NCBI GenBank assembly: GCA_964643995.1
Contig: CAZXUJ010000002.1
Location: 114,125-178,124, forward strand
Direction: 5' to 3'
DNA length: 64,000 nt
DNA from: an uncultured Candidatus Saccharibacteria bacterium
Lineage (GTDB): Bacteria > Patescibacteriota > WWE3 > UBA101185 > UBA10185
In this document: in pieces, positions 21,297 through 40,924 of the stretch
Numbering within the stretch: the stretch's first letter is position 1
How the letters are laid out: each line of letters opens with the position of its first letter
Position numbers and translations under genes: made by a program
Notes under the pieces: model-generated
Told to the model about the DNA's origin: nothing
The model's input: only the letters and a program-made list of their open reading frames with translations
The model's database searches: none

Positions 21297-21788
21297 TTAC
21301 GGCAATGGCACCCCAGCGAGATCAAATGCCTCCATGAGCCACTGGATAATGTCACCGTTCTTCTGCAAAAAGGTTACACCATCAGGGAGATCTAGGTGAC
21401 CCATGTCTGCCGCGGACATGAGCACAATTGGCCTAATATGGACCCGAAGAATCTTTGGAATGCAGTACTCAGCACCACTTGAGTATCCATACTCATCAAC
21501 AAAATATATAGTTGTTGATTTCCTGAAGATGATATCATCGCAATCAGCCACCAACTCAGTGGTGCAACCAAGTTGTCGAAGTCCTATTTCGACCAACTCC
21601 CCCCAAGGCGCATCGTCCACAATAACTGCGCGACAACCCCCGCTAGAATTGATTTTTATCGCATGTAGCGAAAGCCATAAACTACCTAGTACTAGCAACC
21701 CAAGAAGAAGAAGATAAGCCCCTACGCGGGCTTTTCTTTCTTCATCGCCATCCCCATGACCACCGGATACTGCAATGCTTCTTGCCAT
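21297..21788 (-). CDS. hypothetical membrane-anchored protein with CheY-like receiver-type fold (orphan)
   Basis: One TM helix (AYLLLLGLLVLGSLWL), then 'RAVIVDDAP...' and 'PIVLMSAADMG', which resemble receiver-domain beta1 and beta4 signatures. Local GC is above that of neighbouring genes. Confidence 0.4.
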   Translation of the reverse strand: MARSIAVSGGHGDGDEERKARVGAYLLLLGLLVLGSLWLSLHAIKINSSGGCRAVIVDDAPWGELVEIGLRQLGCTTELVADCDDIIFRKSTTIYFVDEYGYSSGAEYCIPKILRVHIRPIVLMSAADMGHLDLPDGVTFLQKNGDIIQWLMEAFDLAGVPLP

Positions 21789-21918: not shown

Positions 21919-23343
21919 ATGTTTTATAAGCATAAAAAAACCAAGATTATCGCAACTGTAGGACCTGCTTGTGCTAACAACGAAGCAATAAGAAACATGA
22001 TTAATCACGGGGTCAATGTGTTTAGATTTAACATGAAGCACGGAACAATGGAGGGACACCATAAAAACATTGATATTGTACAAGAAGAAGCTAACAAACT
22101 ACACGTCCCAATAGGCATCTTGGTAGATCTTCAAGGGCCTGAGATTAGAATCCAGACTCAAAACAAAGAGGATCTAGTCGTAACCAAAAACCAAAAAATA
22201 AAATTTGTTCAGAAGTTTGACCTTACAAGTAAAGAGCCTCAGATCAAAATAGTTCACAAATCTGTTTTTACTGCACTAGAAGAAGGGGATATGTTTTCGA
22301 TAGATAACGGATATATCCAACTAGTGGTACAACAGAGCAACAATGATAATTTTATAGCTATAGTTCAAGATGACGCAGTAATAAAAAACATGAAAAGCAT
22401 GAATCTGTTTGGGAAAGATTTAAAGCTACCCTCACTGATTAAAGACGATATTGAAAGATTGACTATAGCAGATTCGAGAAAGATTGATTATGTAGCTTTA
22501 TCTTTTGTAAGGTCTAAACGCGATCTCGATATTTTAAGAAAACACATGAAGGAGAAGGGAATTGACGCCCAGGTTGTAGCTAAAATCGAAAGTCAAGCTG
22601 CCATTGACAACATTGACGAAATCATAAAAGAGTCTGATGTAGTGATGATTGCTCGTGGAGACCTTGGTGTAGAAACACCAATAGAAAAGCTAGCCTACTA
22701 TCAAAAAATGATAATCACTAAGTGCCGTCACGCTAATACACCAGTAATTGTCGCAACTCAAATGTTGGAGTCTATGATAAACAGTCCAATTCCAACACGA
22801 GCGGAGGCAACAGATGTAGCAAATGCTGTTTTGGACGGAACAGATGCCTTGATGCTATCTGGGGAAACAGCTATTGGAAAGTACCCAGAGCGTGCTGTTA
22901 TGGAAATGTCAAAGATAGCTATGTTTAACGAAGAAAAGTCTGAAGTAGTACAGTTTGATATAAAGCCTCAAAATGCTACTGAACTTATCGTTGAAGCAGC
23001 AGAAACAATTGCTCAAAATTCCAAAGATTTGAAGATAGATCACATAGTTGTTATGACCGAAACAGGATACACCGCGAAAGTTTTATCGGTGTTCAGGCCA
23101 AAGATACCGGTTATCGCTATCACGGACCTTCAAAAAACTGTCGAGATACTTACTATGTCCTATGGTGTAAGACCTGTGAAGGTTAAGCTTCCACAAGGAA
23201 CAATGCTGACACCAAACTACATAATTAAACAACTGAAAGATCTTGAAGAGGTTGAAAAAGGCGAACTGGTCCTGTTGATACACGGACAACACTGGAAAAA
23301 ACCAGGGCAAACTAACGCCGTAGTTCTGATAACCGTAGAATAG
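21919..23343 (+). CDS. pyk: pyruvate kinase
   Basis: 'KIIATVGPA' and 'MIARGDLGVE' motifs; full-length barrel plus C-terminal domain. Confidence 0.9.
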   Translation: MFYKHKKTKIIATVGPACANNEAIRNMINHGVNVFRFNMKHGTMEGHHKNIDIVQEEANKLHVPIGILVDLQGPEIRIQTQNKEDLVVTKNQKIKFVQKFDLTSKEPQIKIVHKSVFTALEEGDMFSIDNGYIQLVVQQSNNDNFIAIVQDDAVIKNMKSMNLFGKDLKLPSLIKDDIERLTIADSRKIDYVALSFVRSKRDLDILRKHMKEKGIDAQVVAKIESQAAIDNIDEIIKESDVVMIARGDLGVETPIEKLAYYQKMIITKCRHANTPVIVATQMLESMINSPIPTRAEATDVANAVLDGTDALMLSGETAIGKYPERAVMEMSKIAMFNEEKSEVVQFDIKPQNATELIVEAAETIAQNSKDLKIDHIVVMTETGYTAKVLSVFRPKIPVIAITDLQKTVEILTMSYGVRPVKVKLPQGTMLTPNYIIKQLKDLEEVEKGELVLLIHGQHWKKPGQTNAVVLITVE

Positions 23344-23360
23344 TAAATAACCCTCCCTCA

Positions 23361-23389
23361 TTGACAAAAAATCAAATGGTTTGTATATT
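23361..23389 (+). promoter_or_regulatory. sigma70-like promoter (TTGACA-17-TATATT) upstream of rpmF
   Basis: -35 TTGACA at 23361-23366, a 17-nt spacer, -10 TATATT at 23384-23389. Confidence 0.5.
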
Positions 23390-23422
23390 GCTAATGCTTT
23401 AATTAGTTGTTAAGCTTATTTT

Positions 23423-23572
23423 ATGCCAGTACCAAAGAGAAGACATAGCAAAGGCCGCGTACGCCGAAAAAGAAATGAAAAGATGCAACAGTCTGTTGTA
23501 AATTCTATTAAGTGTAAAACCTGCGGCGCAGCAAAGTTACCACATCGTTTATGTGCAGCTTGTGGCAAGTAG
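23423..23572 (+). CDS. rpmF: 50S ribosomal protein L32 (49 aa; absent from the ORF track because it is under 60 aa)
   Basis: Translation 'MPVPKRRHSKGRVRRKRNEK...CKTCGAAKLPHRLCAACGK' carries the L32 N-terminal motif and the CxxC...CxxC zinc ribbon. Confidence 0.85.
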   Translation: MPVPKRRHSKGRVRRKRNEKMQQSVVNSIKCKTCGAAKLPHRLCAACGK

Positions 23573-23609
23573 TAGTATTGTAGTATTAAAGTAAGTTAAA
23601 GAACCTTAA

Positions 23610-24053
23610 ATGAAATCAATAAATGACCCAAGACACAACGCTAGAAGAATAGTGTTGGGAACGTTGTTTTGTGCACTCCATACTAATGTGGATGATGAGG
23701 CATGTTTGGAATTAACCAAAGAACTTTTAACACCCGAAAACATAGATGAATCCTTGACTAAAAAAATAATAAGTGGTATTAAGAAGCACCAACGCGAAAT
23801 CGACGGGATCATTGAGAAATGCGCCCCCGAATGGCCAGTTGATAAAATTGCCAAAGTCGACCTTGTGGTTTTGAGGATTGCTGTATTTGAAATTCTTTAT
23901 GACAACGAGGCGCCTGACAAAGTGGTAATCGACGAGGCTGTAGAACTTGCTAAGGAGTTTGGAAACGACACTTCAGGCAAATTCGTTAATGGCGTGCTGG
24001 GAACAGTAGTAGACATAAAAGTTTCCATACAAAAGGAGCAGACAAATGGATAA
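23610..24053 (+). CDS. nusB: transcription antitermination factor NusB
   Basis: 'PDKVVIDEAVELAKEFGNDTSGKFVNGVLG' is the NusB signature. Confidence 0.85.
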   Translation: MKSINDPRHNARRIVLGTLFCALHTNVDDEACLELTKELLTPENIDESLTKKIISGIKKHQREIDGIIEKCAPEWPVDKIAKVDLVVLRIAVFEILYDNEAPDKVVIDEAVELAKEFGNDTSGKFVNGVLGTVVDIKVSIQKEQTNG

Positions 24054-24279
24054 ACAAACAAAGGAAATAATAAATTTTATAGCAGACAGAGTCGGTGTAG
24101 AGTCTGAGGATATAACACCTGATTCTTATGTTGAAGACGATCTAAATATCGGCGAACTTGAACTTATTGAAATTTTAGAGGAACTAGAAGAGAAATACGG
24201 TGTAGAGTTAATGGACTATAAAGACGACTTTGAAACTATAAACGATATTCTTGAGCAAATAAACGAAAAGATTGACTAG
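24046..24279 (+). CDS. acyl-carrier-protein-like small acidic protein lacking the phosphopantetheine-attachment serine
   Basis: 77 aa and collinear with ACP ('SYVEDDLNIGELELIEILEELEE' against the ACP '[23 protein letters not shown]'), but the DSL motif is IGEL, so Ser is replaced by Glu. It sits immediately upstream of rnc, as acpP does in many bacteria. Confidence 0.6.
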   Translation: MDKQTKEIINFIADRVGVESEDITPDSYVEDDLNIGELELIEILEELEEKYGVELMDYKDDFETINDILEQINEKID

Positions 24280-24973
24280 TATGAGTTTTAAATCAAGCCA
24301 AGTAGAAGATGTTTTAAACATAAAGATAAAAGACATTGACTTGTTTGAAACTGCTTTTACCCATAGATCATACTTAAACGAACACCCTAACTATAAGCAC
24401 CCGTCTAATGAGAGGCTAGAGTTTTTAGGGGATGCGGTTCTACAACTAATTTCTTCAGAATATTTATATCTTCACTACGACGAGCCGGAAGGCATTCTTA
24501 CAAACTATAGATCAGCTATAGTTTGCACAAAATCTCTCGCACAAGAAGCTAAGAGGTTGGGATATGGTGAGTTTTTATATCTCTCCAAAGGTGAAGAGGC
24601 CTCTGGAGGACGTGATAGGGAATATATTCTTGCTAACACTTTCGAAGCAGTACTCGGAGCTTTATATCTTGCGGAGGGGTTGGAATTCTGTAAGAACTTT
24701 GTTGAAAAAGAGCTACTTTATAAGGTTGATGAGATTATCGAGACAGAATCCTATAAAGATGCTAAATCAAAATTTCAAGAGAAGGCACAAGAGTTAAGGA
24801 GTATAACACCTGAATATAAAGTTTTAGAAGCCTGGGGTCCAGATCATGAGAAAAGCTTTAAGGTTGGGGTTTTCTTAGGTAATGAGTTACTTGGAGAGGG
24901 AGAAGGCGCAAGCAAACAAAAAGCTGAGCAAAAAGCCGCTTTTGCTGCGTTAGACAAATTAAATAACCTTTGA
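24272..24973 (+). CDS. rnc: ribonuclease III
   Basis: RNase III signature 'ERLEFLGDAVLQL' and a C-terminal dsRBD. Confidence 0.9.
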   Translation: MTSMSFKSSQVEDVLNIKIKDIDLFETAFTHRSYLNEHPNYKHPSNERLEFLGDAVLQLISSEYLYLHYDEPEGILTNYRSAIVCTKSLAQEAKRLGYGEFLYLSKGEEASGGRDREYILANTFEAVLGALYLAEGLEFCKNFVEKELLYKVDEIIETESYKDAKSKFQEKAQELRSITPEYKVLEAWGPDHEKSFKVGVFLGNELLGEGEGASKQKAEQKAAFAALDKLNNL

Positions 24974-24989
24974 TAGAATTCAGGAGCTT

Positions 24990-25289
24990 ATGTCAGTAAC
25001 AATCAGATTAGCAAAAGTAGGAAGAAGAAATGCACCAGCATATAAAATTGTTGTTGCAAACACCCGTGATAAAAGAAACGGGAGATTTTTGGATGTCTTA
25101 GGACATTACAACCCTTCTCATAAACCTGAAACATTTGCAATCGACCAAAATAAATATCAGGAATGGCTAGCAAAAGGAGCCTTAACCTCTGCAACAGTTA
25201 CAAAACTTCGAGAAGGTAAATATACCTTTAAACCATACCGACCCCACGCTTCTAAAGACACTGAAGTAGAAAATTCTTCAGAGGCCTAA
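24990..25289 (+). CDS. rpsP: 30S ribosomal protein S16
   Basis: 'MSVTIRLAKVGRRNAPAYKIVVA' is the S16 N-terminus. Confidence 0.9.
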   Translation: MSVTIRLAKVGRRNAPAYKIVVANTRDKRNGRFLDVLGHYNPSHKPETFAIDQNKYQEWLAKGALTSATVTKLREGKYTFKPYRPHASKDTEVENSSEA

Positions 25290-25290
25290 G

Positions 25291-25518
25291 ATGCGAGAAT
25301 TTGTAGAATTTCTAGTTAAACAGATAGTTAATAAGCCCGAAGAATTAAAAGTTGATGAAGATCTCGATGGTACTGTTGTAACCATAAACATTTGTGCGAA
25401 TAAAGAAGATATGGGGTTAATAATTGGTAAAAGTGGTAAAACTATAAAAAGCATAAGAGACTTAGCTAAAGCCAAAGCTATAAAGGACAAAGTTAAGGTA
25501 TATGTTACGGTATGCTAA
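25291..25518 (+). CDS. KH-domain RNA-binding protein (YlqC/UPF0109 family)
   Basis: KH motif 'IIGKSGKTIKSIR', in the conserved rpsP-KH-(rimM)-trmD context. Confidence 0.8.
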   Translation: MREFVEFLVKQIVNKPEELKVDEDLDGTVVTINICANKEDMGLIIGKSGKTIKSIRDLAKAKAIKDKVKVYVTVC

Positions 25519-26192
25519 CTTTTGATGTACTGACCCTATTTCCCGAGCTATTTCAAAATCATTTCAATGAGCTACCTTTTAAACGAGCAATAAAGAAAGA
25601 ACTTATAGAGTGCAAGGTAACAAATCTAAGAGACTTTGCAGTAGATAAACATGGTACCGTAGATGATAAACCGTATGGTGGGGGAGTGGGAATGATATTA
25701 ATGCTCGAACCTATCTATAAAGCGCTTCACAAGATATACGATGGTCAATACAAAGATAAAAAGATAACACCACCAAAAAAGGACAAAATCATCTTTTTAA
25801 CACCAACTGGTAAAACTTACAATCAAAACAAAGCCTATGAATTAGCCGAATATAAACATTTAACATTCATTTGTGGAAGATATGAAGGGGTTGATGCGAG
25901 AATATCCGAAATTGCAGATATCGAGGAGATTTCAATAGGAGATTATGTACTTTCTGGCGGGGAATTGCCTGCATTAGTGATCATGGAAAGTATTGTGCGC
26001 CTACTTCCAGGAGTTCTTGAAGATCCAGAGGCACTGAACACTGAATCTTTCACGGAGATTTATCTAGAGCACCCGCAATATACAAGACCAGAAAACTTTC
26101 AGGGTATAAAAGTACCTGAAATACTTCTTTCAGGACACCATAAAAACATTGAACAATGGAAAAAAGATAACTCTAAAAAGCCTCAGGTGTAG
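25512..26192 (+). CDS. trmD: tRNA (guanine37-N1)-methyltransferase TrmD
   Basis: 'FDVLTLFPE' N-terminus and the SPOUT knot region 'GGYEGVDAR...SIGDYVLSGGE'. Confidence 0.9.
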   Translation: MLTFDVLTLFPELFQNHFNELPFKRAIKKELIECKVTNLRDFAVDKHGTVDDKPYGGGVGMILMLEPIYKALHKIYDGQYKDKKITPPKKDKIIFLTPTGKTYNQNKAYELAEYKHLTFICGRYEGVDARISEIADIEEISIGDYVLSGGELPALVIMESIVRLLPGVLEDPEALNTESFTEIYLEHPQYTRPENFQGIKVPEILLSGHHKNIEQWKKDNSKKPQV

Positions 26193-26961
26193 GAGGAACT
26201 TCTTCTATCACTACTTCGCCTGGTACAGGCTCTACAGGTAAATCGCTACCTGGAAGATCAGTAATATCTATAAAGTTTTCAACAGTAATATCGTAGTGTC
26301 TTAGGTTTTTTAAACGCTCCATCATTTGCTGAAAATCGTCAGCAGTTATATCAAAAGTGATAGGTTCATCGGTGTTGGCTTGGGCACTTACTTCTACATA
26401 TGGAGAAATTAACACCATGTTCGTATCAACTGTGCCAAGTTCCTCGTCAACAGTGAATCTTACGGTTGCGACATTTATTACACGAGAGGAATCTTCCAGA
26501 TTGGTCAAAAAGGTCACTACCTGATTATAGTTGCCTGCGACACTTATATTTACTGCAACAACTTGATAATTGCCAATTTTAGGGTCAACCTCACCAGTAT
26601 CGTTCAGCGCATAGCTCATGCGTGTAATTGCAAGACCTGATTCACGTGCTATCTGATCAATTTGGGTCAATAATTGAGGAACCAAAGGTTCATTAGATAA
26701 TGCTTTTGAAACCAAGACATTACTATCATCAACATTCTGTTTGAAATCTAAAAGATTATTTAGTTTTTCAACTTTATTGACTAACTGTTGGGATAAGTCC
26801 GCACGATCCTTAAGTTCTGAGTTTAGAAGAGGTATATCACTTAAAGAAGGATAGATGTATAAACCTAACAAACCAAGAGAGAGCACAAGTGCAACTAAAG
26901 GAATGATAAAATTTGCTATCGTTTGTTTAAGTCTAATACCTAATAATTCTTTTACATCCAT
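26173..26961 (-). CDS. pilO: type IV pilus assembly protein PilO-like (bitopic)
   Basis: N-terminal TM, a coiled region, a C-terminal ferredoxin-like region with alternating hydrophobics ('YQVVAVNISVAGNYNQVVTFLTNLE'), and position downstream of pilM-pilN. Confidence 0.6.
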   Translation of the reverse strand: MDVKELLGIRLKQTIANFIIPLVALVLSLGLLGLYIYPSLSDIPLLNSELKDRADLSQQLVNKVEKLNNLLDFKQNVDDSNVLVSKALSNEPLVPQLLTQIDQIARESGLAITRMSYALNDTGEVDPKIGNYQVVAVNISVAGNYNQVVTFLTNLEDSSRVINVATVRFTVDEELGTVDTNMVLISPYVEVSAQANTDEPITFDITADDFQQMMERLKNLRHYDITVENFIDITDLPGSDLPVEPVPGEVVIEEVPPTPEAF

Positions 26962-26976
26962 ATAACTGATGACCCA

Positions 26977-27567
26977 CTACTCAAAAAGTAGTGATGGGTC
27001 GTAATCCACAACAATAAAATAAGTAACTGAAAGATCTTGATTGTCTAAGTTTACTGAGTTAAGTGTTACATTTGTAAAAAGTTTTTCGAATCCAGGGTGC
27101 ACGCCGGGAAAATTCTGATCAGACAATGTATCAATAAAACGAGCGATTGATATGTAATCAAGCCCGGTACCAGACAAACTTATAGCCGAACGGTCATCAC
27201 CAACTAAAGTGAAATTATCTACCTTAACAGTGTCGGAGGGTACTCGTTTTTGTAGTTCATCTAGCAAAATAGAGTACTTATACCTAGCATCAAAAAAATT
27301 ATCCAAAACTACATATTTTGCGTCTAGTTCACGAGCAACAAGTTCTATCTCTAAAAGATTAGAAATATCCGTACGACTTTTTTCTATATTGACGTTTTGT
27401 TGGGCAATTGCTTTGTTGATTTCAGATTTGCGATACCAGTAGTAGCCACTTACACATACAACGATGACTAACAGTAGTATCGAAAATACAGAACTCATTT
27501 TAACGATACGTTCTTTACGTTGTTCTTTTTTTTCCTCTTGTGGAATTAAGTTAATGCTTTGAGACAT
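26977..27567 (-). CDS. pilN: type IV pilus assembly protein PilN
   Basis: The canonical PilN N-terminus 'INLIP', a TM helix, then a periplasmic domain. Confidence 0.7.
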   Translation of the reverse strand: MSQSINLIPQEEKKEQRKERIVKMSSVFSILLLVIVVCVSGYYWYRKSEINKAIAQQNVNIEKSRTDISNLLEIELVARELDAKYVVLDNFFDARYKYSILLDELQKRVPSDTVKVDNFTLVGDDRSAISLSGTGLDYISIARFIDTLSDQNFPGVHPGFEKLFTNVTLNSVNLDNQDLSVTYFIVVDYDPSLLFE

Positions 27568-27568
27568 A

Positions 27569-28612
27569 TTATATTTCTTTCAGTGCCAATCCAACCGCTG
27601 TTGAATAAATTGGTCCTGAGTCCATCAAGGCCTCTCTGCTGTGCTCAATCTTCTCATCTAATTTGATACTTCTCCAAGGATTCGCTAATTCGGCCTCTAC
27701 ATCAAGCTTATTTACCATGTAGGCAAGTAGTCCCGGCATCAGAGCAGTTCCGCCAGACAGTGTAACTCTATTTATGAGAACATCGGGATTATGCGTTGTG
27801 TAGTACGTCTTTGATCTGTTTAGTTCCATTAATATATTGTCAAAAACAGGTTTTATTGCTTCGTAAACCTTGCCTTCAACTTGAGTTTCGTCCAGACCAT
27901 AAGCCTTTTTATATTCCTCAGCCTGCACAGCCTCTAGACCTAAACATTTTTGAACAGCGCGAGTCAGTTCATCGCCTCCAACCGACACACTACGTGTAAA
28001 TTGTACGAAACCTTTGTAACTAATGATTAATTGTGTAGAAGCCGCACCAATGTGCACTATTATGCTGGCGCTTGGTCTTTCCGAGGTATCTCCCAGAATC
28101 CTTTCTATGGATAGTGTCTCGGGTTCTATACCTCTTGGAGTCAGCCCAGCACGTTTAATCAAATCGACATAGTTTGCTAAGACCTGATTCTTGGAGGCAA
28201 CTAGAAGAACACCCATAGTATTAGTGTCCGCAGCAGTTTGGGCATTACCACTCTGTAAGATCTGAACATCAAAAGTTACATCTGCAATGGGTATAGGAAT
28301 ATACTCTTCTGCACCTAAAGCAATGAAGTCCTTTAATTCTTTATATTCCATAACAGGCGTCGTTACCACCCGCAAAAATATATCCTGTTCAGGTAAAGCT
28401 ACTACAACGTGGGATGTGCTGAAATGGTGATCTTTTATAAAATTTTTAACAGCTTCTGCGTATGAATTTACTAAATCTTCATTAGTAAAGTTCAGTTCTA
28501 AAGGGGAACCATCGTATACTCCAAAGTTCTTCAAAATTTGCACTCCCTTGATCTTATCAAGCTCAACCGCGCAAAATCTTTCTCTTCCGATGTCGAGTCC
28601 TATAATGGGCAT
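27569..28612 (-). CDS. pilM: type IV pilus assembly ATPase-like protein PilM (actin fold)
   Basis: 'IGLDIGRERFCAVEL' actin-like phosphate-1 motif, 347 aa, followed by pilN and pilO. Confidence 0.85.
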   Translation of the reverse strand: MPIIGLDIGRERFCAVELDKIKGVQILKNFGVYDGSPLELNFTNEDLVNSYAEAVKNFIKDHHFSTSHVVVALPEQDIFLRVVTTPVMEYKELKDFIALGAEEYIPIPIADVTFDVQILQSGNAQTAADTNTMGVLLVASKNQVLANYVDLIKRAGLTPRGIEPETLSIERILGDTSERPSASIIVHIGAASTQLIISYKGFVQFTRSVSVGGDELTRAVQKCLGLEAVQAEEYKKAYGLDETQVEGKVYEAIKPVFDNILMELNRSKTYYTTHNPDVLINRVTLSGGTALMPGLLAYMVNKLDVEAELANPWRSIKLDEKIEHSREALMDSGPIYSTAVGLALKEI

Positions 28613-28646
28613 GGTTACATTCTAACAAAATTGAACGCTTAAATCA

Positions 28647-29450
28647 TTAGTTAGCTAATGGATTTATATCTGATTTTGAATATATAACGTAGTCAAATAA
28701 ATACGGGGTTTTATTAGAACCTCTTATGGCACCAATTTTTGTAGTTGTATCTAGGGAGGTTCCTGTGGATTCAATTAGGATGCCCTGGCCAGGTATAACA
28801 GCACTTGCGTGTGGGAAAACCATAACATCCACGTTTTGATACAAAGCACGCAGCCTAAGCAGTTGTGGGGAGGTTTGTGAAGAAATACCAAAGCAACTTT
28901 GATAACCATTTGCTGGTGATGCCTGAGTAAAGTTATTTGTTAACACACTGCTAGCAGAATTGTAAGCTACACTATTAGCCGAATAACTCCCAACAGTACC
29001 GTAAACTAACATACCCACTACTGACGGCAGGGGATCGAGACCCGCTTCGTTCCAACAAATAGTAAGATTAGTGTTGTTTGGATAACCTGCCAAATTTACT
29101 TCGCTTGATGAACTTTGTGACAAAGGCACCGAAAAGGGTTCAGACGAATTTCCAAGTCTAGTAAGAGTAACTGTTGCAGTTTCAACGATTCCATCGCTAT
29201 TAGTAACTTGAAGCGAACATTCAGCGCCACAGCTATTGTTTGTTATGTATGCATCAAGCTCCTGTGGAGTCTTAAGAAGCATTCTTTCTAGCAAAGCATC
29301 TGCAGCTGCCGAAGATCTATAACCTGTTTGAGTCCTTGTAACCGACCTAAGGCTTTTTATAAAACGACTGGAGGTTGCAATACCTATACTTAGCGCCAGC
29401 ACCATTACTAATACTATTATAACTAAAGTTTGTCCTCGTTCTTTGTTCAT
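28647..29450 (-). CDS. PilX-like minor pilus-associated protein (N-terminal TM, no canonical prepilin cleavage motif)
   Basis: 'MNKERGQTLVIIVLVMVLALSIGIATS' resembles a PilX_N-type N-terminus. The real start is probably the internal Met at 29450 rather than the ORF-track start. Confidence 0.4.
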   Translation of the reverse strand: MNKERGQTLVIIVLVMVLALSIGIATSSRFIKSLRSVTRTQTGYRSSAAADALLERMLLKTPQELDAYITNNSCGAECSLQVTNSDGIVETATVTLTRLGNSSEPFSVPLSQSSSSEVNLAGYPNNTNLTICWNEAGLDPLPSVVGMLVYGTVGSYSANSVAYNSASSVLTNNFTQASPANGYQSCFGISSQTSPQLLRLRALYQNVDVMVFPHASAVIPGQGILIESTGTSLDTTTKIGAIRGSNKTPYLFDYVIYSKSDINPLAN

Positions 29451-29454
29451 ATGA

Positions 29455-30015
29455 TCAATAAGTACCACGCAAAACTATAGTCTGTTCGAGTGGAACACTG
29501 CCTTGAAAACTTACACCACCAGTGGAAGCAGCCTGGAGTAAATTAAAATCAATCATAACAACATGAGGCTGGCTTTGATTCAAAACACAAATTTGACTTG
29601 AATTGTGATCAAGTTTTATACCGTTTGACTGAGTGCTATCCAAAACTGGGGAAGTAAACGAGTTAATACCATCATTTTCTGTACGACGTAAGGTACCTGC
29701 ATCGGCACCACTAGTATCAATCTGATAAGTGATCGTCACCAAACTATCATCTAATACACTATTCCTTTGGAATACTAATGTCGTGGAACATGTCCCCTGT
29801 GCAGGGCTAGTTAAGGATAATGCAACACGAAGTTCTTTTTCCATTTTTGACATCGCGATTGTTCCAGATTGCTCGATTTCGTTTGTAATTCTTGTCTTAT
29901 TGTACGTCCTTACTAAACTCAAAATGATGTCTGTAGTAAGACCAGCCGTTATAGCCAAAAGTGATATTGAGATTAACAGTTCAATTAAAGTAAAACCCTT
30001 TTCCGAGCGCTTCAT
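29455..30015 (-). CDS. prepilin-type minor pilin (pseudopilin)
   Basis: Class III signal 'MKRSEKG|FTLIELLISISL' with Glu at +5. Confidence 0.7.
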   Translation of the reverse strand: MKRSEKGFTLIELLISISLLAITAGLTTDIILSLVRTYNKTRITNEIEQSGTIAMSKMEKELRVALSLTSPAQGTCSTTLVFQRNSVLDDSLVTITYQIDTSGADAGTLRRTENDGINSFTSPVLDSTQSNGIKLDHNSSQICVLNQSQPHVVMIDFNLLQAASTGGVSFQGSVPLEQTIVLRGTY

Positions 30016-30018
30016 AAC

Positions 30019-30546
30019 CTAGTCAGTCCTCCAGTTAGAAACATCAGTGAAAATGTGAGAGGACTGTGCATCATTTCCTACCATCCACGTAACTTCTATA
30101 TTTATTCTAAGTACTGGGTCGGTGGTGCTTATTATATTGGTGTTATCACCAACCTCCTGAACAGGGTCAGTTACAGAGAAAGAGTATGAAAGTTCATTAA
30201 CAGTACCTACTTCCTCTGTGAAAACACCACTATTTATTACGAGATTGTAACTGTTGTCCACAGACATATAGCAATCACCACTGTTAACACAACCAAAAGC
30301 GTTTATGGCAGCTACAAACACGTCCCAGTTTCTGCTATCTCTATAAGCTCTAACCAACTCCAACTGTTCATTTGCCGATTTAGAGCCGCGTAGTAAAAGT
30401 TTGCCTCGACTGGAGGATCTAAGAGTGTATACAGATAGGGAAACTAGGGACGTTATTACAACAATCGCCAACCCTAGTGCCGCAATTATTTCGATTAGAC
30501 CTATACCACTTTCTGACTTGTTAAAATAATTTAGTTTGTAGGACAT
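30019..30546 (-). CDS. prepilin-like minor pilin (divergent cleavage motif)
   Basis: 'SESGIGLIEIIAALGLAIVV' is a G|xxLIE-type N-terminus. Confidence 0.55.
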   Translation of the reverse strand: MSYKLNYFNKSESGIGLIEIIAALGLAIVVITSLVSLSVYTLRSSSRGKLLLRGSKSANEQLELVRAYRDSRNWDVFVAAINAFGCVNSGDCYMSVDNSYNLVINSGVFTEEVGTVNELSYSFSVTDPVQEVGDNTNIISTTDPVLRINIEVTWMVGNDAQSSHIFTDVSNWRTD

Positions 30547-31088
30547 CGCTCTCCCACGGGAATAGGATTATTGCCCGTATAAGTATATACTGTACCAACT
30601 CTATTTACGGCTACTTTATAGGTAGTACCACCCGAAGGATATCGCAGGTTAACTTCGCTGGAGCTTCGACATACTGCATCACCATCTTCGAAGCTGAAAA
30701 AGATACAAATATCATCATCCATGACTTGTATGTTTGCTGGTAACGCCTCTGATTGCTCGTAAGACGACATTGTACCTATTACAGTTGTACACAAGTTGCC
30801 AAGGCCAGAAGCCGCGAGATCGGTTGCAAAATAAGAGTATCTTCCTGTTTCCTTTCTAAACGCTATACCCCAATATGTCGGGGAAGTTAAATTTTGTTTT
30901 ACGCCATTGAGCGCGCGTATTTGAACACCACGAATATCGCTTTTTATTTGATCCTGGGCCTGACGTAAATTTTGATTAGTGATATAGTTGTTAAAGCTTG
31001 GGATCGCCATACCTGTAATAGTTGCTATGATAGCTATTACAACCATCAACTCTAAGAGTGTAAATCCAGCTTGGGCAGACCTTAACAT
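30531..31088 (-). CDS. prepilin-type minor pilin
   Basis: 'MLRSAQAG|FTLLELMVVIAII'. The probable start is the internal Met (at 31088) of the 30531..31109 ORF. Confidence 0.65.
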   Translation of the reverse strand: MLRSAQAGFTLLELMVVIAIIATITGMAIPSFNNYITNQNLRQAQDQIKSDIRGVQIRALNGVKQNLTSPTYWGIAFRKETGRYSYFATDLAASGLGNLCTTVIGTMSSYEQSEALPANIQVMDDDICIFFSFEDGDAVCRSSSEVNLRYPSGGTTYKVAVNRVGTVYTYTGNNPIPVGERCPTN

Positions 31089-31114
31089 ACTAAAATGATA
31101 ACACAACAAACTTG

Positions 31115-31606
31115 CTAAAGTATTGTTAAATCGTCACCTAACTCATAAAGTAGGGGATTATTTCCTCCATCATTCTCGGCATACTCGGAATAATATTCTA
31201 AACGAGCATTCAACTCATATGTGTAGCCATTGTGTTGATAATAATAGTGATAACTTGCATTATTGGTAGGATCTAGAGGCAGTCTGTTTACAAAAGCAGA
31301 AAAATTAGCATCTATCCAGCCGTCAGTTACATCAAACAGCGGTCCCATGTTGCCTGATGGTAATGCAGTACTTTCCCTAAGCATATCGACAGTATCTGGA
31401 TACCTATCATTATCTATCTTGAACTCATTAATAATGTTTTCAAGTGTCGACATATCGCTTAGACGCTTTTCATCGCGGGCACGCTGGCGTATTTCAGAAG
31501 GACTTATTGATAAAGCTAACCCACCAATTACAAAAAGGAAAATAGCGAATGCTACAAGAATGCTTATTAAGGAGTAACCAAGATTGTTAGGGGTTTTCGA
31601 CACCAT
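31115..31606 (-). CDS. pilin-like protein with degenerate class III signal
   Basis: 'MVSKTPNNLG|YSLISILVAFAIFLFV' lacks Glu at +5. The probable start is the internal Met at 31606. Confidence 0.45.
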   Translation of the reverse strand: MVSKTPNNLGYSLISILVAFAIFLFVIGGLALSISPSEIRQRARDEKRLSDMSTLENIINEFKIDNDRYPDTVDMLRESTALPSGNMGPLFDVTDGWIDANFSAFVNRLPLDPTNNASYHYYYQHNGYTYELNARLEYYSEYAENDGGNNPLLYELGDDLTIL

Positions 31607-32162
31607 AGCAAAAGTCTGAAGTTGCCGGTGGGTTCGCCGCGCACCCATCATAGGCATCCCATGAGTTTAATGTGTGACACTCGTGCCCGTTGTTAGAGGT
31701 TGCAACCTCCATTTGGGCAGTCAACAGATAGATATCTCCCGTAGCCGTGGTCCGATAGTTGTATCGAAAGTTCGTAGGTATAGTGCAAGGGCTAGCGTTG
31801 ATACCTACCGGTGTGGGTTCGATAGGTACGGCATTAATATAGCTGGGAGATAAAGCGGTTGATAACGCATCAGTTCCTGTGATTCTGAGCCAAGCATTAG
31901 GACCAGGATATCTTCTAAAGTCAGCAAAATAAAGTTCAAGAGCCGACTGTATCTTTTTTAAATCAGCAATTCTAGTATTATCTCTAGACTTTTGCCTAAT
32001 ACCTTGAGAATTAATAACAGTTAAAATCAAACCTGCTAAAACACCTATAATCATGATTACTATCAAAAGTTCAACTAAGGTGAAACCTTTTTGTTTTTCA
32101 GGTGGTGTATTTTGGGCAGACATGCTTCTGTAATTATACATATTTTTAACAAGGGGAACCAT
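31587..32162 (-). CDS. type IV pilin
   Basis: 'PEKQKG|FTLVELLIVIMIIGVLAGL' and the GspG/PilA-like helix 'RDNTRIADLKKIQSALELYF'. Confidence 0.7.
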   Translation of the reverse strand: MVPLVKNMYNYRSMSAQNTPPEKQKGFTLVELLIVIMIIGVLAGLILTVINSQGIRQKSRDNTRIADLKKIQSALELYFADFRRYPGPNAWLRITGTDALSTALSPSYINAVPIEPTPVGINASPCTIPTNFRYNYRTTATGDIYLLTAQMEVATSNNGHECHTLNSWDAYDGCAANPPATSDFCYGVENP

Positions 32163-32646
32163 CTCTCGTCACACAATCCAAAATTTCGTCTACTAGGCAA
32201 GACGTCGCACATTCTTTTGCAATTGATCCAGAGCAGGCAGGATTGTTACCCGAAACAGGCTTAGATACGAATTTAAAATATTTAGATGGGTCTGTAGCCA
32301 TAGGGACGGAAATACACAAAGCATCGTTTGGATAGGATTTATACTGGTACAAAGCGTCCAGAGGCCAGTTGTTAACATACGTCTCTAAACCAGTGTTGTC
32401 ATTGAGTGGGTTGCCGTCATTGTTTATATCAACTGGGAATGTTCCGCGAGATGCCACAAAAGACGAAACACCGGTAACTAAATTATTTAGAGTTGCTTGA
32501 CGAACACTATCTTCAGCCTTATTACGATACAATGGACCATTTAATATAGACAACACCAACCCAGCTAAAATACCAACTATTGTTATAACTACTAAAAGCT
32601 CGACTAATGTGAATCCTTGAATTTTTTTTATGGGGGAGATCATCAT
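32146..32646 (-). CDS. type IV pilin
   Basis: 'MMISPIKKIQG|FTLVELLVVITIVGILAGL'. The start was moved to the Met-Met at 32646, because the ORF-track start at 32667 lies inside a 13-bp hairpin. Confidence 0.7.
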   Translation of the reverse strand: MMISPIKKIQGFTLVELLVVITIVGILAGLVLSILNGPLYRNKAEDSVRQATLNNLVTGVSSFVASRGTFPVDINNDGNPLNDNTGLETYVNNWPLDALYQYKSYPNDALCISVPMATDPSKYFKFVSKPVSGNNPACSGSIAKECATSCLVDEILDCVTRDGSPC

Positions 32647-32652
32647 TTGATG

Positions 32653-32684
32653 GCATATGCCCTGCACTTACGCAGGGCATATGC
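32653..32684 (-). other. perfect 13-bp stem-loop between two pilin genes (an attenuator or mRNA-processing/stability element)
   Basis: gcatatgccctgc-acttac-gcagggcatatgc: zero mismatches, a 6-nt loop, and it ends 7 nt upstream of the downstream pilin's ATG. Confidence 0.5.
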
Positions 32685-32691
32685 TCTTTGG

Positions 32692-33276
32692 TTAATTCAA
32701 CTCTACACAGCCTCCTAAAGCACCACTAATCGCCAATGTTGTAGGACAGGTATAGAAACCCTCATTTATAACACCACCTGTTTCAGCATATTCATATACG
32801 AAGGACTGAGGAGGGTTAGCAACTCCACGAACACCTATTCTGAAAGAATCAACCGTTCGGTAATACTTAAACTCACACTGTACTGCACCACCTGTTCCGG
32901 TCCAGTTTTCAGAAGCACAGTCCGCACCAAGTGAAATACCATCAACGGAAAATTCACATTGGGTAGTAGCGTTTGTTACTGTCGAAGCACAGTCTCCAAC
33001 ATCATTTATTGTATCCGCAGCACCTCCAACACCACTAAAGAATTCTGCAAGTGACGGAGCACGCTCCGTTGTTCTAGGGGACGACACAAAAAGTGACTTT
33101 CCTGCTAGCGCCATCTTGTTTAGAGAAGATCTAAATGTTGCATCTCTAGCTCGATTCTGTTGTTGAATAGGATTTAACACGCCGATAACTACTCCGGCTA
33201 AAATACCTATAATAACAATAACTATTAACAACTCAATAAGAGTAAAACCCCTACTATTCAATCTATGTTTGGTCAT
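32692..33276 (-). CDS. type IV pilin (candidate abundant pilin of this block)
   Basis: 'MTKHRLNSRG|FTLIELLIVIVIIGILAGV'. It is followed by the strong stem-loop. Confidence 0.7.
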   Translation of the reverse strand: MTKHRLNSRGFTLIELLIVIVIIGILAGVVIGVLNPIQQQNRARDATFRSSLNKMALAGKSLFVSSPRTTERAPSLAEFFSGVGGAADTINDVGDCASTVTNATTQCEFSVDGISLGADCASENWTGTGGAVQCEFKYYRTVDSFRIGVRGVANPPQSFVYEYAETGGVINEGFYTCPTTLAISGALGGCVELN

Positions 33277-33391
33277 TTGGTTGCACCTCCTTTCGACAAT
33301 AATTTATTTTTGCAAATATGAAGTTCAGTTTGAGTAATTCGTAAAGTTTTCATTGGGCAGATCATTCTTAAGTAAGTATGATTTCTATCAA

Positions 33392-34306
33392 CTACTGTGT
33401 CAAGTTATCCTTTGAATAAAATGAGAAATCAAATACTGCCGGTGTGTAAGAGAAAGATTTAAACACTGTAACATCGCGGGCAATACCGTCTGTATTTACA
33501 AGTTCACCTCGCGTTGTGATTTTATAACCTTGCATAGGCAGGGCAGGGGTAGGGAACAATCGTCCATCATCTATAGCATCGCCTAAAGCTCTAATTCTTA
33601 ATCCCTGCGGGTCACTGACACCATTAGCACCTGAAACAACTACGGTGTAACAATGATCGTATTCTGGGTGTCCTGCGGAACTCCCGGAGGAAGCAGTTTC
33701 GGCATTGCCATAAGTCCACTGATGGCAATTTTGTGTGGAACAACGCACTATATCGTTTACGTTGTCTCCCAAGTCATTATAGACACGGTAATATAAATCA
33801 GCATTGCCATCCCAACATACTTCTACCTCAGGCTGACCATATCCATCCAAGAATATCTCTTTAACGTCATTTGCTGGAATTGAGAACACCGAGGAATAGC
33901 CATTGTCTGGATCAGTAACGTCATACTCCTCAACCGTAACTGCGGAACGCACCTCTATAGGATCTTGCCCGGTACCACTCTGTGCGGTAAAACGTACAAA
34001 ACATGTTCCGGAACTTGTAACCCATTCCCCACTTAAAATACCTGTGCATTCAGACGAACTTATACCATTAGTGGCCAGACTATCCAGATCGTTGTTACTC
34101 AGGGTCAAAGTTCTTTCTGCAGCTCCCTCAGCCGCGGCTAGAGCACGCTGTGAGGTATCCGTATCTGCGACAGTGGAAACAGAATTTATAGTTTCCAAGG
34201 ACAAACCAATACCCAAAGCTAAAGCTATAGTCATGGTTATAACAACAAACAACAAGGCCTGTCCTAATTCATTTCTTTTCAAGTCAATGTTTATCAAAGG
34301 TTTCAT
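33392..34306 (-). CDS. PilX-like pilus-associated protein (N-terminal TM + secreted domain)
   Basis: 'ELGQALLFVVITMTIALALGIGLS' N-terminus. No enzymatic motif, and it lies within the minor-pilin operon. Confidence 0.4.
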   Translation of the reverse strand: MKPLINIDLKRNELGQALLFVVITMTIALALGIGLSLETINSVSTVADTDTSQRALAAAEGAAERTLTLSNNDLDSLATNGISSSECTGILSGEWVTSSGTCFVRFTAQSGTGQDPIEVRSAVTVEEYDVTDPDNGYSSVFSIPANDVKEIFLDGYGQPEVEVCWDGNADLYYRVYNDLGDNVNDIVRCSTQNCHQWTYGNAETASSGSSAGHPEYDHCYTVVVSGANGVSDPQGLRIRALGDAIDDGRLFPTPALPMQGYKITTRGELVNTDGIARDVTVFKSFSYTPAVFDFSFYSKDNLTQ

Positions 34307-34326
34307 TGTGTTTCAATGATAACTAA

Positions 34327-36585
34327 TTATGGACTGACTTTCCATATGACATCTTGTTCCATTACTCCAGAATTTTCGGTCAACTCACGCCCATAAATTG
34401 GATTGTATTTGACAAGTGCCGCAGGATATAAGGCATTGCTTAACCCCAAATTGCGTCGAAGTTCAATGTTAACAGTAGTGACATCAGACGACCCAGCAAC
34501 AAAAGGTCCCTCTAACAAAATTATTTTGTCTGGTTGCCCAGGAAAATTGGGGGAATAGCTTGAACCAAAGGTTATAGTGTGCTGTGCAATTAACCCAATT
34601 TGTAAATGAGCAGGACTAGTGGCAAGGTTACCAATTGTTGCAACTGTGGTTCCTACATCAGGAGCAATATAGACCGGGCGCTGACTTATAATTAAAATAC
34701 GACGATCAGTATGTTGTGATGTAAAACTCTGAGGAAAAGTTAGTGAACCAGCACTACCAGTTACATATAGCACAGCCACACCAGCCCCACCACCAAGATT
34801 ATAGTCATCATTATTTAACAGATAGCTATTTACTAGGCCAATTTCGGCGCGATATACACGACCGGTTTGCATGGTGTTCAAGCCCTGCGCATTTGTAAGG
34901 TTGGTAGCACCCGCTGGGGGCGTAAAACTAAAGGTGGAAGGCCAAAATCCTCCAGTAAAACCATCTATATACTTACCACCCTCAACCAAACGATCTGGTG
35001 ACACCTGTATATCTTCACCAAAAACTGCTACTTCGCGACTTCCACCATGAAATGTCAGATAGGGCTCTACACCACTATTTGGTGCAACAACCCCAGATAC
35101 ATTCGCCGCGATAACTTCGCCGTATGTATCACCATCCAAACTTGCAAACCAACCGTCATCATAGGGATTCTCCAAGACATAACCAAAATTATACCCAGCT
35201 AAATTAGTGTTGAAATTGGCTACAGGTATAGAAGCAAGAGTAGGGCTATATGTCCATGTACCAGAGTTGCCAGCTTTTATACACTGGTATCTGTACTGAA
35301 TTCCGACAGCAGCCAAATCGGGATCATTGGAACTCACCACAGTTCTATTCAACGATACAGCTCCTGCAGCGCCAGGTAAGTTCGTAATTGTATAGTTGGA
35401 GTTTCCTGCATTAACATTTGCGGATCTGCTATAACTATACGTGGTAACATTAAACGTGGCAGTTACTGGGTCTGCAGTAAGATTGGCCACGGAATGCAAA
35501 CTTGATTGCCCAGCGACTGGGGTGCAGGTGTTCCCACTAACCGTGACATAATTCAAAGTACCACTTAAAGAATAAGGTGTACAGGTATTCACAAAAAATG
35601 CAGCACCGGGGACGTCTGCAGACAGCGCGCCATTCGCAGCTTCAGCTTGAACACTCCATCCTAGATATTGCCCGGGCACAAAAGACATAATCGCAGGCTG
35701 AATACCGATCGTTGCAGTACAGGTTGCACCATTACAGGAACCACTAGTGCTAGTATTTGCGCTTGGGGGAATATATCTCCACCAATCATTTGCACTCACC
35801 CATTCGGGATTAGTCAAATCCTCACGATTAACTCTCAAAATATATCTGACCGCACCCGGAACAGCAGTCCAATTGAATGTGCCAGTACGATAAGGTAAAT
35901 TGTTTCCGGGGTTTACGCAAACATCACTGCGACTTAAAATAACAGGATTTCCAAAAACTTGATATCTGAAGTTGCAATCGGTACCACAGTCATTAGATGC
36001 ATTGGCCTCTTGACTCTCATAGCTGGCTGAGTTTAGCGGGGTATGGGCACCAGAAACTACATTCCAACTTGCCGTATTGTTTGTAGTCTGAGCAGGAGGT
36101 ATGTACCCTGAAGGCGCAGTTTGCGGAGTTGCCATGTTACCTGGCACTCTTACGGCATAAGTATAACCGGCCTCTACGGCATTTGTGAAAACAAAGTAAC
36201 CATTACTGTCAGTGGAATCATAAATTGTTGTGTTAGTACCTGTATCATATAGAGAAACATTTACATTTTGAATCCCAACATTGGTATTAGCGTCCCGGAC
36301 ATAACCCGCAACAGTAATCATTATGTTGCCACCACCACAACAATAAGCACCAGGACACTCTGCATCCCAACCCGAGTTAGTGTTACATTGGTTATTATCG
36401 CAATTACAAGTACACCCATGATCTTCACAACAATCATGTCCCGTTGGAGGGCAAGTGTAACCAGCAGGACAGTCTCCACAGGTATGGTGCGCATAAACAG
36501 GTGAAGTAGCTGTAGAGGTAAAAGTAACAACTACAAAAAACCCAAACAAAACCAAAATATGTCTAGTAAAATTATTTTTCTTCAT
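34327..36585 (-). CDS. large secreted Cys-rich protein with CnaB/carboxypeptidase-regulatory-like beta-sandwich; candidate pilus-associated adhesin
   Basis: Signal peptide 'MKKNNFTRHILVLFGFFVVVTFTSTATSPVYA', a Cys-rich module 'CGDCPAGYTCPPTGHDCCEDHGCTCNCDNNQCN', then 'ITVAGYVRDANTNVGIQNVNVSLYD...SNGYFVF' (CnaB-like), then a long Thr/Ser/Asn/Gly-rich region. Confidence 0.55.
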   Translation of the reverse strand: MKKNNFTRHILVLFGFFVVVTFTSTATSPVYAHHTCGDCPAGYTCPPTGHDCCEDHGCTCNCDNNQCNTNSGWDAECPGAYCCGGGNIMITVAGYVRDANTNVGIQNVNVSLYDTGTNTTIYDSTDSNGYFVFTNAVEAGYTYAVRVPGNMATPQTAPSGYIPPAQTTNNTASWNVVSGAHTPLNSASYESQEANASNDCGTDCNFRYQVFGNPVILSRSDVCVNPGNNLPYRTGTFNWTAVPGAVRYILRVNREDLTNPEWVSANDWWRYIPPSANTSTSGSCNGATCTATIGIQPAIMSFVPGQYLGWSVQAEAANGALSADVPGAAFFVNTCTPYSLSGTLNYVTVSGNTCTPVAGQSSLHSVANLTADPVTATFNVTTYSYSRSANVNAGNSNYTITNLPGAAGAVSLNRTVVSSNDPDLAAVGIQYRYQCIKAGNSGTWTYSPTLASIPVANFNTNLAGYNFGYVLENPYDDGWFASLDGDTYGEVIAANVSGVVAPNSGVEPYLTFHGGSREVAVFGEDIQVSPDRLVEGGKYIDGFTGGFWPSTFSFTPPAGATNLTNAQGLNTMQTGRVYRAEIGLVNSYLLNNDDYNLGGGAGVAVLYVTGSAGSLTFPQSFTSQHTDRRILIISQRPVYIAPDVGTTVATIGNLATSPAHLQIGLIAQHTITFGSSYSPNFPGQPDKIILLEGPFVAGSSDVTTVNIELRRNLGLSNALYPAALVKYNPIYGRELTENSGVMEQDVIWKVSP

Positions 36586-36591
36586 AAAATC

Positions 36592-37236: not shown

Positions 37237-37370
37237 CCCATCGTCAATGATGTATACAAAAAAAATAATATACTATCGGTCTAGGAAAAAAGTTGCTATA
37301 ATTCAGAACTAGAGAGATTTGAAAATTTAATATTTTTCTGGATTTTGGAAATCTGGAAAAGGAGCATGAG

Positions 37371-38219: not shown

Positions 38220-38250
38220 TCTTTTTAAGTAAATAAGTAGGGAGCCTAGA

Positions 38251-38287
38251 AGGGCAGTGATCTTTATGAAAGGAGAATCACTGCCCT
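38251..38287 (+). terminator. stem-loop terminator downstream of lipoprotein gene
   Basis: 11-bp stem agggcagtgat / atcactgccct with a 15-nt loop, followed by a U-rich tail 'aagctttctg'. Confidence 0.45.
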
Positions 38288-40856: not shown

Positions 40857-40880
40857 AGATCAATTATATACTGCTTATTG

Positions 40881-40913: not shown

Positions 40914-40924
40914 CCTAATGAACG

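Follow-up and report, generated by a model that had tools for sequence, protein, structure and literature searches.

A 64-kb stretch of DNA from an uncultured bacterium labelled Candidatus Saccharibacteria (contig CAZXUJ010000002.1; hereafter the window, to which our genome-level statements about the source refer) encodes, between nusB and rnc, a 77-amino-acid protein that keeps the predicted four-helix fold of an acyl carrier protein (ACP) and has lost the serine that carries the phosphopantetheine arm. Serine-less ACP derivatives of this kind are a large family, fixed in the nusB–rnc slot of WWE3-type Patescibacteria and, as far as the literature that we searched extends, previously undescribed (that is, we found there no prior description of a serine-less ACP in the candidate phyla radiation (CPR) or Patescibacteria). 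We propose, with a probability of roughly 0.7, that the protein is a cofactor-independent, acidic, protein-binding derivative of AcpP that was kept after the loss of the fab genes in Patescibacteria, most likely in WWE3/Katanobacteria.

Predicted ACP fold

The PP-binding profile (PF00550), which a preliminary description of this open reading frame (ORF) had named as a check on its ACP identity, does match, marginally: residues 7–69 score 21.3 bits, a bare pass where the gathering score is 20.8. Of 14 NCBIfam matches, 13 are to ACP-type models (four at E ≤ 1e-8, the best at 1e-10), and all of these ACP matches lie under the curated cut-offs (35 against 70.45 for TIGR00517); neither NCBIfam nor Pfam contains a model dedicated to a serine-less ACP family. 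The top solved relative in a phmmer search of the PDB is the Aquifex ACP 2ehs (E = 1.9e-9), the matches being ACPs of the fatty acid synthase (FAS) type, and an entry for trypanosome mitoribosome assembly, 7aoi, is also among the sequence matches.

An AlphaFold2 model built from a nine-sequence input has a mean predicted local distance difference test score of 90.7 and, as assigned by DSSP, four helices (residues 3–16, 37–51, 56–61 and 65–76). The top Foldseek matches of this model in the PDB are all FAS-type ACPs (template modelling score of 0.82–0.89, root-mean-square deviation of 1.2–2.0 Å), and the predicted structure shows that the four-helix ACP fold is kept. The protein contains 26 acidic and 6 basic residues, which gives a net charge of −20 (−15 for Escherichia coli ACP), and its helix II is more acidic than that of canonical ACPs. 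Coordinates, alignments and fold thus agree with what had been proposed of the ORF at the outset, namely that it is collinear with ACP, of the same length, endowed with an acidic helix II and located 5′ of rnc.

A marginal match to DUF1493 (PF07377; 21.6 bits against a cut-off of 21, residues 1–58 on profile positions 1–64 of 108) was treated as cross-talk between ACP-like families, given that it is no better than the PP-binding match and that the fold and the PDB matches are those of FAS ACPs.

Loss of the attachment serine

Where ACPs carry the invariant (D/H)-S-L, the window protein reads Gly36-Glu37-Leu38 and the serine is absent. The alignment with 2ehs places N-I-G-E-L of the query on G-A-D-S-L, and a MAFFT alignment with the E. 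coli and Bacillus subtilis ACPs places Glu37 in the column of Ser36. Because the predicted helix II spans residues 37–51, Glu37 is also its first residue, the place of the modified serine in ACPs. PDB alignment, MAFFT and helix placement in the model therefore all confirm the Ile-Gly-Glu-Leu first noticed at the Asp-Ser-Leu site. According to established ACP chemistry, a protein without this serine receives no phosphopantetheine arm; it can neither become holo-ACP at the canonical site nor carry acyl thioesters. As the modifiable serine is absent and the protein scores below all curated equivalog thresholds, we refrain from classifying it as an acyl carrier protein.

The question of whether the change is conserved in the lineage was addressed by a pattern-free profile search of 1.84 billion representatives at 50% identity. 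Serine is absent from 72 of the 79 short matches (E in 47, D in 9, Q in 4, K in 4, A in 3, P in 3, N in 1 and G in 1) and from every one of the 47 short matches that score at least 57 bits, so that its loss extends across a large Patescibacteria family. The replacement, however, is not uniformly glutamate (D, Q, K, A, P, N and G also occur): E or D occupies the site in 56 of the 79 short matches, and across 94 serine-less members position 37 is E in 71% and D in 12%.

Six of the seven serine-bearing short matches have a canonical D-S-L-D and all of these score low. The seventh, P0111 (locus L034, 6001–6240), comes from a WWE3 metagenome-assembled genome (MAG; GCA_026396615.1), reads A-D-L-N-I-H-S-L-E (that is, H-S-L-E with the serine kept) and occupies the same L32–NusB–X–Rnc–S16–KH–TrmD slot. 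Its mean identity is 34% to the serine-less family and 30% to canonical ACPs, which places it nearer to the former. It is named ‘acyl carrier protein [candidate division WWE3 bacterium]’ by NCBI and is a singleton in a search of 5.8 billion proteins; it may be either a survivor of the ancestral state or a reversion.

The multi-domain matches (101–320 amino acids; tandem duplicates and carrier-domain repeats) have serine-bearing motifs almost throughout, although one match of such length (P0077) is a family member with an insertion and proline at the site. No informative fusion was found among the multi-domain matches, and a motif scan of the longer ones (up to 4,019 amino acids) was largely uninformative.

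Two further proteins, otherwise canonical-looking ACPs with glutamate in place of the serine, were left out of the family since they are encoded on phage-like contigs and not in the nusB–rnc slot: P0127 (L027, 245–484; D-D-L-N-C-D-E-L-D) and P0143 (L030, 8001–8222; A-D-L-Y-A-D-E-L-D). One stands beside SSB and the other amid many small uncharacterized ORFs together with AAA_24, DUF3799 and Lar_restr_allev. The two proteins point to a further set of serine-less ACPs, independent of the first and possibly phage-encoded.

Conservation and purifying selection

The preliminary description had allowed that the ORF might prove to be poorly conserved; it is strongly conserved instead. A word-indexed search returned nine proteins (the window protein and eight relatives, down to 47% identity), all of which read D-D-L-N-I-G-(E/D), none of which has a precomputed Pfam domain and two of which have a name given by their source. 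More widely, an intact frame of 73–82 amino acids is present in dozens of genomes, down to approximately 30% identity. Column conservation over the 94 serine-less members is near-invariant at D32, L33 and N34 (99%), E48 (98%), G17 (95%), E39 (93%) and D67 (91%), with E49 (81%) and E42 (74%, and D in a further 22%) adding to helix II. The best-conserved part of the family is therefore D-L-N (32–34) plus helix II (that is, the end of loop I and helix II), and its signature can be written D-L-N-x-G-E-x-E-L-x-E-I-L-x-E-L-E-E, in which an invariant asparagine stands where canonical ACPs have glycine (D-L-G).

Compared with a 90%-identical orthologue on a 106-kb contig, 9 of 187.8 non-synonymous and 34 of 43.2 synonymous sites differ, which gives a pN/pS (the ratio of non-synonymous to synonymous differences per site) of approximately 0.06, the same regime as for NusB, Rnc, S16 and KH; pN and pS are reported in place of a dN/dS ratio because synonymous sites are saturated (pS of 0.79). 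Given such strong purifying selection, the gene is not a decaying relic, and a serine-less ACP fold is conserved across the lineage.

A nusB–rnc slot without fab genes

A scan of contigs with the peptide pattern EDDLNIG[ED] yielded 24 loci; the MAGs concerned are labelled candidate division WWE3, Patescibacteria, ‘Saccharibacteria’ and Nomurabacteria. Because this pattern is the motif itself, counting these loci as evidence of motif conservation would be circular, and for that purpose we relied on the pattern-free profile search and on the contexts of single distant matches. With the window neighbours as tblastn queries, the order RsmD ... L32–NusB–X–Rnc–S16–KH–TrmD was found in all of the 24 loci that reach far enough, and distant matches with glutamine (P0084), glutamate (P0119), alanine (P0019) or proline (P0163) at the site occupy the same slot as far as their contigs extend. 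Adjacency to rnc is kept in all related loci, at a spacing that varies from −11 to +86 nucleotides. The spacing to nusB is tighter: in most of about 30 loci (approximately 30–90% identity, including Q, A and P types), the nusB stop and the ACP-like start overlap by 8 or 4 nucleotides or are at most 5 nucleotides apart. The named close relatives of the window NusB are from candidate division WWE3 and the ‘Patescibacteria group’, and members of the ACP-like family that have names in public sources are called ‘acyl carrier protein’ or ‘phosphopantetheine-binding protein’.

No fab gene lies within L32–NusB–ACP-like–Rnc in the window or in the approximately 30 related loci, whereas a canonical control from a Bdellovibrionales MAG (L026, 6203–14111) reads YceD–L32–FabH–FabD–FabG–ACP (DSL, 55 bits)–FabF. 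The idea that the usual neighbourhood had collapsed to rpmF–nusB–ACP-like–rnc is thereby borne out. In Firmicutes, acpP and rnc are adjacent. Together, these observations support the view that the slot gene is the old acpP, that the fab genes between rpmF and acpP have gone, and that almost every descendant subsequently lost the serine. In the control, whose genome has fatty-acid synthesis, the cluster is followed by SHMT, NrdR and NusB, the last 3.4 kb downstream; an already nearby nusB may explain how it came to abut the ACP gene after the loss of the fab genes.

The wider setting is that of a lineage reported to be without fatty-acid synthesis. Among the approximately 54 ORFs scanned against Pfam in the 64-kb window, no homologue of AcpS/Sfp, Fab, PlsX, PlsY or PlsC was found, nor does the window contain a second, canonical acpP; lipid-metabolism genes are not linked to the ACP-like gene in the window or in the approximately 30 loci. 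The content of the window (a type IV pilus cluster, PBP1, Rel, translation genes and gyrase) is typical of CPR. A published analysis of CPR genomes, some of which keep PlsY and PlsC, detected no enzyme that produces or requires ACP (10.1101/465690), metabolic reconstructions of TM7 contain zero ACP-using reactions (PMC6609349), and in a complete WWE3 genome no pathway for lipid biosynthesis could be identified (PMC3812714).

The slot is filled differently elsewhere. The cultivated Saccharibacterium Southlakia epibionticum has nusB–NUDIX–rnc (SEML1_0592–0595), with the NUDIX gene scored as essential or growth-defective (supplement of PMC10633639), and its annotation and Tn-seq tables contain no ACP, PP-binding or PF00550 entry (PMC10633639). 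Occupants of the nusB–rnc slot therefore differ between CPR classes.

A proposed cofactor-free protein ligand

We envision that an acpP orthologue was retained in its rpmF–fab–acpP(–rnc) position after the surrounding genes for fatty-acid synthesis had been lost, and we infer that this ACP was ‘repurposed’. Helix II is the universal docking surface of ACPs. Selection would act on the end of loop I and on helix II (that is, on the surface by which ACPs dock their partners), which makes a small cofactor-independent protein-binding subunit or regulator the most likely role; the lineage would thereby have preserved a ‘hub’ interaction of ACP for which the prosthetic group was never required. In 83% of the family, position 37 is glutamate or aspartate, which may stand in for the negative charge that the phosphodiester contributes to the N terminus of helix II in holo-ACP; in the ACP–Isd11 complex, this charge is read by a conserved arginine (10.1101/2021.04.13.439690).

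As to the partner, the surrounding cluster for rRNA transcription, rRNA processing and ribosome biogenesis, and NusB in particular, is the leading lead, and a weak one. A crude mirror-tree comparison (23 taxa, six cluster proteins, 15 pairs), of a type that shared phylogeny inflates, ranks ACP-like/NusB at the top of all pairs (raw correlation 0.82; partial correlation 0.43, permutation p of approximately 0.001), with ACP-like/Rnc at a partial correlation of 0.17. Rel/SpoT, SMC-type ATPases, cysteine desulfurase and lipid acyltransferases are other candidates. In E. coli, AcpP contacts SpoT through the TGS domain of the latter, a domain that is also present in the Rel/SpoT-type protein of the window (Table 1). 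SpoT is listed among the interaction partners of E. coli AcpP (PMC8602292). No desulfurase or LYR gene is linked to the slot in any related locus, and the window and related loci show no linkage to MukB or SMC either.

Several observations weigh against this reading or against its leading partner. A charge that mimics the phosphate cannot be essential, because relatives have Q, K, A or P (also N or G) at position 37, those with Q, A and P in the same slot. The mirror-tree signal for NusB is only suggestive, because the unrelated pair Rnc–KH reaches 0.37. NusB and RNase III are themselves acidic (net charges of −7 and −12), and there is thus no simple electrostatic complementarity with the ACP-like protein. 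A concatenated query returned no fusion of NusB with the ACP-like protein among its best 120 matches, only stand-alone NusB of 135–184 amino acids. Given nusB–NUDIX–rnc and no recognisable ACP in Southlakia, NusB and RNase III work without the ACP-like protein in at least one CPR class. The gene order itself may be purely historical, since acpP–rnc and rpmF–acpP adjacency are ancestral.

Alternative explanations

A more specific version of the same idea assigns the protein a dedicated accessory or regulatory role, either in the rRNA antitermination that depends on NusB or in RNase III processing and ribosome biogenesis, with translational coupling keeping it at a fixed ratio to NusB. The tight or overlapping junction with the nusB stop in most of the approximately 30 loci, the highest partial mirror-tree value (0.43) and the fact that L32, NusB, RNase III, S16, KhpA and TrmD all concern rRNA, ribosomes or tRNA speak for it, as does 7aoi among the sequence matches, mitochondrial ACP–LYRM modules being participants in mitoribosome assembly. 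However, the fusion is absent from the best 120 matches of the concatenated query, both NusB and Rnc are net acidic, Southlakia has a NUDIX gene and no recognisable ACP between nusB and rnc, the neighbours rnc and rpmF are a legacy of the canonical acpP locus, and the mirror-tree value is only marginally above that of background pairs; we consider this version doubtful. Its boldest form is that a former fatty-acid carrier has become a cofactor-free subunit or regulator of rRNA transcription and processing, co-translated with NusB in WWE3-type Patescibacteria, where an acidic RNA-mimicking or assembly factor might act on a conserved basic face of NusB, on RNase III or on nascent ribosomal particles. 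This is a speculation to which we assign a low probability; if true, it would provide a bacterial counterpart of the mitochondrial ribosome-assembly ACP modules and the first bacterial ACP with a solely non-metabolic role.

Lipid handling without a cofactor, either as a non-covalent chaperone of fatty acids or lysolipids or as an allosteric or competitive ligand of acyltransferases (PlsC, PlsY) that use scavenged host lipids, appears very unlikely to us. The helix II–III–IV core of the ACP fold is retained in the prediction, and apo-ACP binds and inhibits the glycerol-3-phosphate acyltransferase of E. coli; to our knowledge, however, canonical ACPs sequester acyl chains only when these are tethered to phosphopantetheine. 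Although membrane building in CPR has to draw on scavenged lipids, and PlsY and PlsC persist in some of them (10.1101/465690), genes of lipid metabolism are unlinked in the window and in all of the approximately 30 loci, and conservation centres on the charged face of helix II and is not shown for pocket residues.

Still harder to credit is a covalent carrier modified at another residue (Ser27, Thr64 or the Ser36 of relatives) or bearing a different modification on Glu37. Ser27 is conserved in 68% and Thr/Ser64 in 96% of members, and serine occurs in 18% at position 36, one before the canonical site, but in canonical ACPs Ser27 and Thr64 are conserved to the same degree, as structural residues, the window protein has Gly36, and A, P, K and Q are tolerated at position 37 in same-slot relatives. 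Moreover, a phosphopantetheinyl transferase is absent from the window and none has been reported for CPR (10.1101/465690).

That the gene is a decaying copy of acpP without a function, or encodes an acidic helical protein whose likeness to ACP is a coincidence, might be read from a Pfam score barely over threshold, NCBIfam ACP models all under their cut-offs and nine word-search proteins of which none has a precomputed Pfam domain and only two are named, but this is effectively refuted by conservation: a pN/pS of approximately 0.06 with saturated synonymous sites, a frame of 73–82 amino acids intact in dozens of genomes to approximately 30% identity, several near-invariant positions, a strong Shine–Dalgarno sequence with translational coupling, a confidently predicted ACP fold and an occupied orthologous position.

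Gene neighbourhood and other features of the window

The features of the region are collected in Table 1. GGAG-type motifs stand 5′ of the ACP-like start in many orthologous loci, as in the window. The in-frame ATG of rnc at 24281 lies 1 nucleotide after the ACP-like TAG, whereas the mechanical ORF call begins at a TTG at 24272. No terminator-like site was found in a scan of the plus strand from 23300 to 26300 (through trmD), and promoter-like sites in the region are in total no more numerous than expected from shuffled sequence; the arrangement is consistent with one transcription unit from rpmF to trmD, site scans being no proof of function.

Table 1. Positions of the serine-less ACP gene, its internal features and neighbouring elements in the 64-kb window
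Feature	Position	Strand	Basis or remark
Rel/SpoT-type protein with HD, RelA_SpoT and TGS domains	2159–3634	−	Pfam; candidate partner
Promoter-like site TTGACA-17-TATATT, just 5′ of rpmF	23361–23389	+	Promoter scan; 11/12
rpmF (L32), first in cluster	23423–23572	+	PF01783
nusB; stop overlaps ACP-like start by 8 nucleotides (ATGGATAA)	23610–24053	+	PF01029, 111.7 bits; TIGR01951, 118.4 bits
Shine–Dalgarno AAGGAG, 7 nucleotides 5′ of ACP-like ATG, within nusB 3′ end	24033–24038	+	Sequence read
Serine-less ACP-fold coding sequence, 77 amino acids (MDKQTKEIINFIADRVGVESEDITPDSYVEDDLNIGELELIEILEELEEKYGVELMDYKDDFETINDILEQINEKID)	24046–24279	+	ATG start, TAG stop; net charge −20
Degenerate attachment motif D-L-N-I-G-E-L-E, codons 32–39	24139–24162	+	Alignments with PDB, E. 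coli and B. subtilis ACPs
Glu37 codon GAA	24154–24156	+	Site of the phosphopantetheinylated Ser of canonical D-S-L
Helix II, residues 37–51 (ELELIEILEELEEKY); equivalent to the acidic ACP recognition helix	24154–24198	+	DSSP on the AlphaFold2 model
Promoter-like site TAGACA-17-TAGAAT, extended TG, in rnc 3′ end, 5′ of rpsP	24951–24979	+	Promoter scan; 10/12
rnc (RNase III)	24281–24973	+	TIGR02191, 236 bits
rpsP	24990–25289	+	tblastn synteny; cluster 24990–26192 with KH gene and trmD
KhpA-type KH protein gene	25291–25518	+	Pfam match, synteny
trmD	25512–26192	+	tblastn synteny; precomputed Pfam families in relatives

Downstream of trmD, a type IV pilus cluster (26173–45552, minus strand) encodes PilO, PilN, PilM, a prepilin peptidase, PilC (T2SSF), two T2SSE ATPases and at least six pilin-like proteins that show a methylation motif at the N terminus or a T2SS protein G domain, with several large Pfam-less proteins interspersed; PilO–PilN–PilM follow trmD on the opposite strand also in relatives whose contigs extend that far. 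A 163-amino-acid ORF (21297–21788, minus strand), located between rsmD and the gene for pyruvate kinase, matches no Pfam family and is predicted to have a hydrophobic segment at its N terminus; a close relative (L033) has a 169-amino-acid ORF at the same position. A 751-amino-acid ORF (59364–61619, plus strand) joins an N-terminal Ham1-like domain (ITP/XTP pyrophosphatase) to a C-terminal IMPDH/GMP-reductase domain, an unusual fusion of purine-nucleotide enzymes.

Implications

ACP is among the most connected of bacterial proteins, and which of its interactions (for example, those with SpoT, MukB, IscS and SecA) function independently of fatty-acid synthesis is a long-standing question. The family described here constitutes a natural experiment on this point, as its docking helix is intact and its cofactor site destroyed in a radiation reported to be without fatty-acid synthesis; the identity of the partner would show which ACP interaction outlives the pathway. 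The core gene set of Patescibacteria, as yet poorly understood, would also be extended by a small protein that is conserved and probably important. The ACP names given to members in public sources could wrongly suggest ACP-dependent metabolism in reconstructions of these genomes.

Comparison with known systems

With canonical AcpP/AcpA (that is, the ACPs of E. coli and B. subtilis, and 2ehs), the window protein shares a length of 77 amino acids, the four-helix fold, the acidic helix II, the conserved Gly17 and Thr64-Val/Ile65, and a position downstream of rpmF and directly upstream of rnc. It differs from AcpP in having glutamate for the serine of D-S-L, glycine for the preceding aspartate and an invariant asparagine for the glycine of D-L-G, in lacking the I-P-D motif before helix III, in its net charge (−20 against −15), in scoring below every curated equivalog cut-off and in the absence of fab, plsX and acpS nearby.

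A bacterial ACP that acts purely as a protein ligand has a precedent in E. coli, where the ATPase activity of MukB is stimulated to an equal extent by the apo and holo forms of AcpP (Prince et al. 2021, PMC8602292). E. coli AcpP nevertheless keeps its serine and is still a fatty-acid carrier, whereas the carrier role appears to be gone in the window protein. Mitochondrial ACP–LYRM modules (the trypanosomal 7aoi and MALSU1–L0R8F8–mtACP) use the ACP fold in ribosome biogenesis, to which the window protein may be likened by gene context alone, that of a ribosome and rRNA gene cluster. The ACPs of mitoribosome assembly carry an acyl-phosphopantetheine that is inserted into the LYR protein.

The closest functional analogue that we can point to is the phosphopantetheine-free mitochondrial ACP (mACP) of Apicomplexa. 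In Plasmodium falciparum, mACP (PF3D7_1208300) has phenylalanine for the serine, is essential and binds Isd11–Nfs1, and no serine-less ACP was found outside Apicomplexa other than in Vitrella (Falekun et al. 2021, 10.1101/2021.04.13.439690). The two proteins differ in that mACP is eukaryotic and organellar and the window protein bacterial, in that a hydrophobic phenylalanine packs on Isd11 where the window family has glutamate or aspartate, and in that the partner of mACP is the LYR protein Isd11 with Nfs1, whereas no LYR or Nfs1 linkage is seen here. They are alike in the substitution of the conserved serine in a protein under selection, in retention after the loss of local type II fatty-acid synthesis and of the transferase (a loss that, for the window lineage, is taken from the literature only), and in a conserved acidic helix II, the residues of which mACP uses for protein binding.

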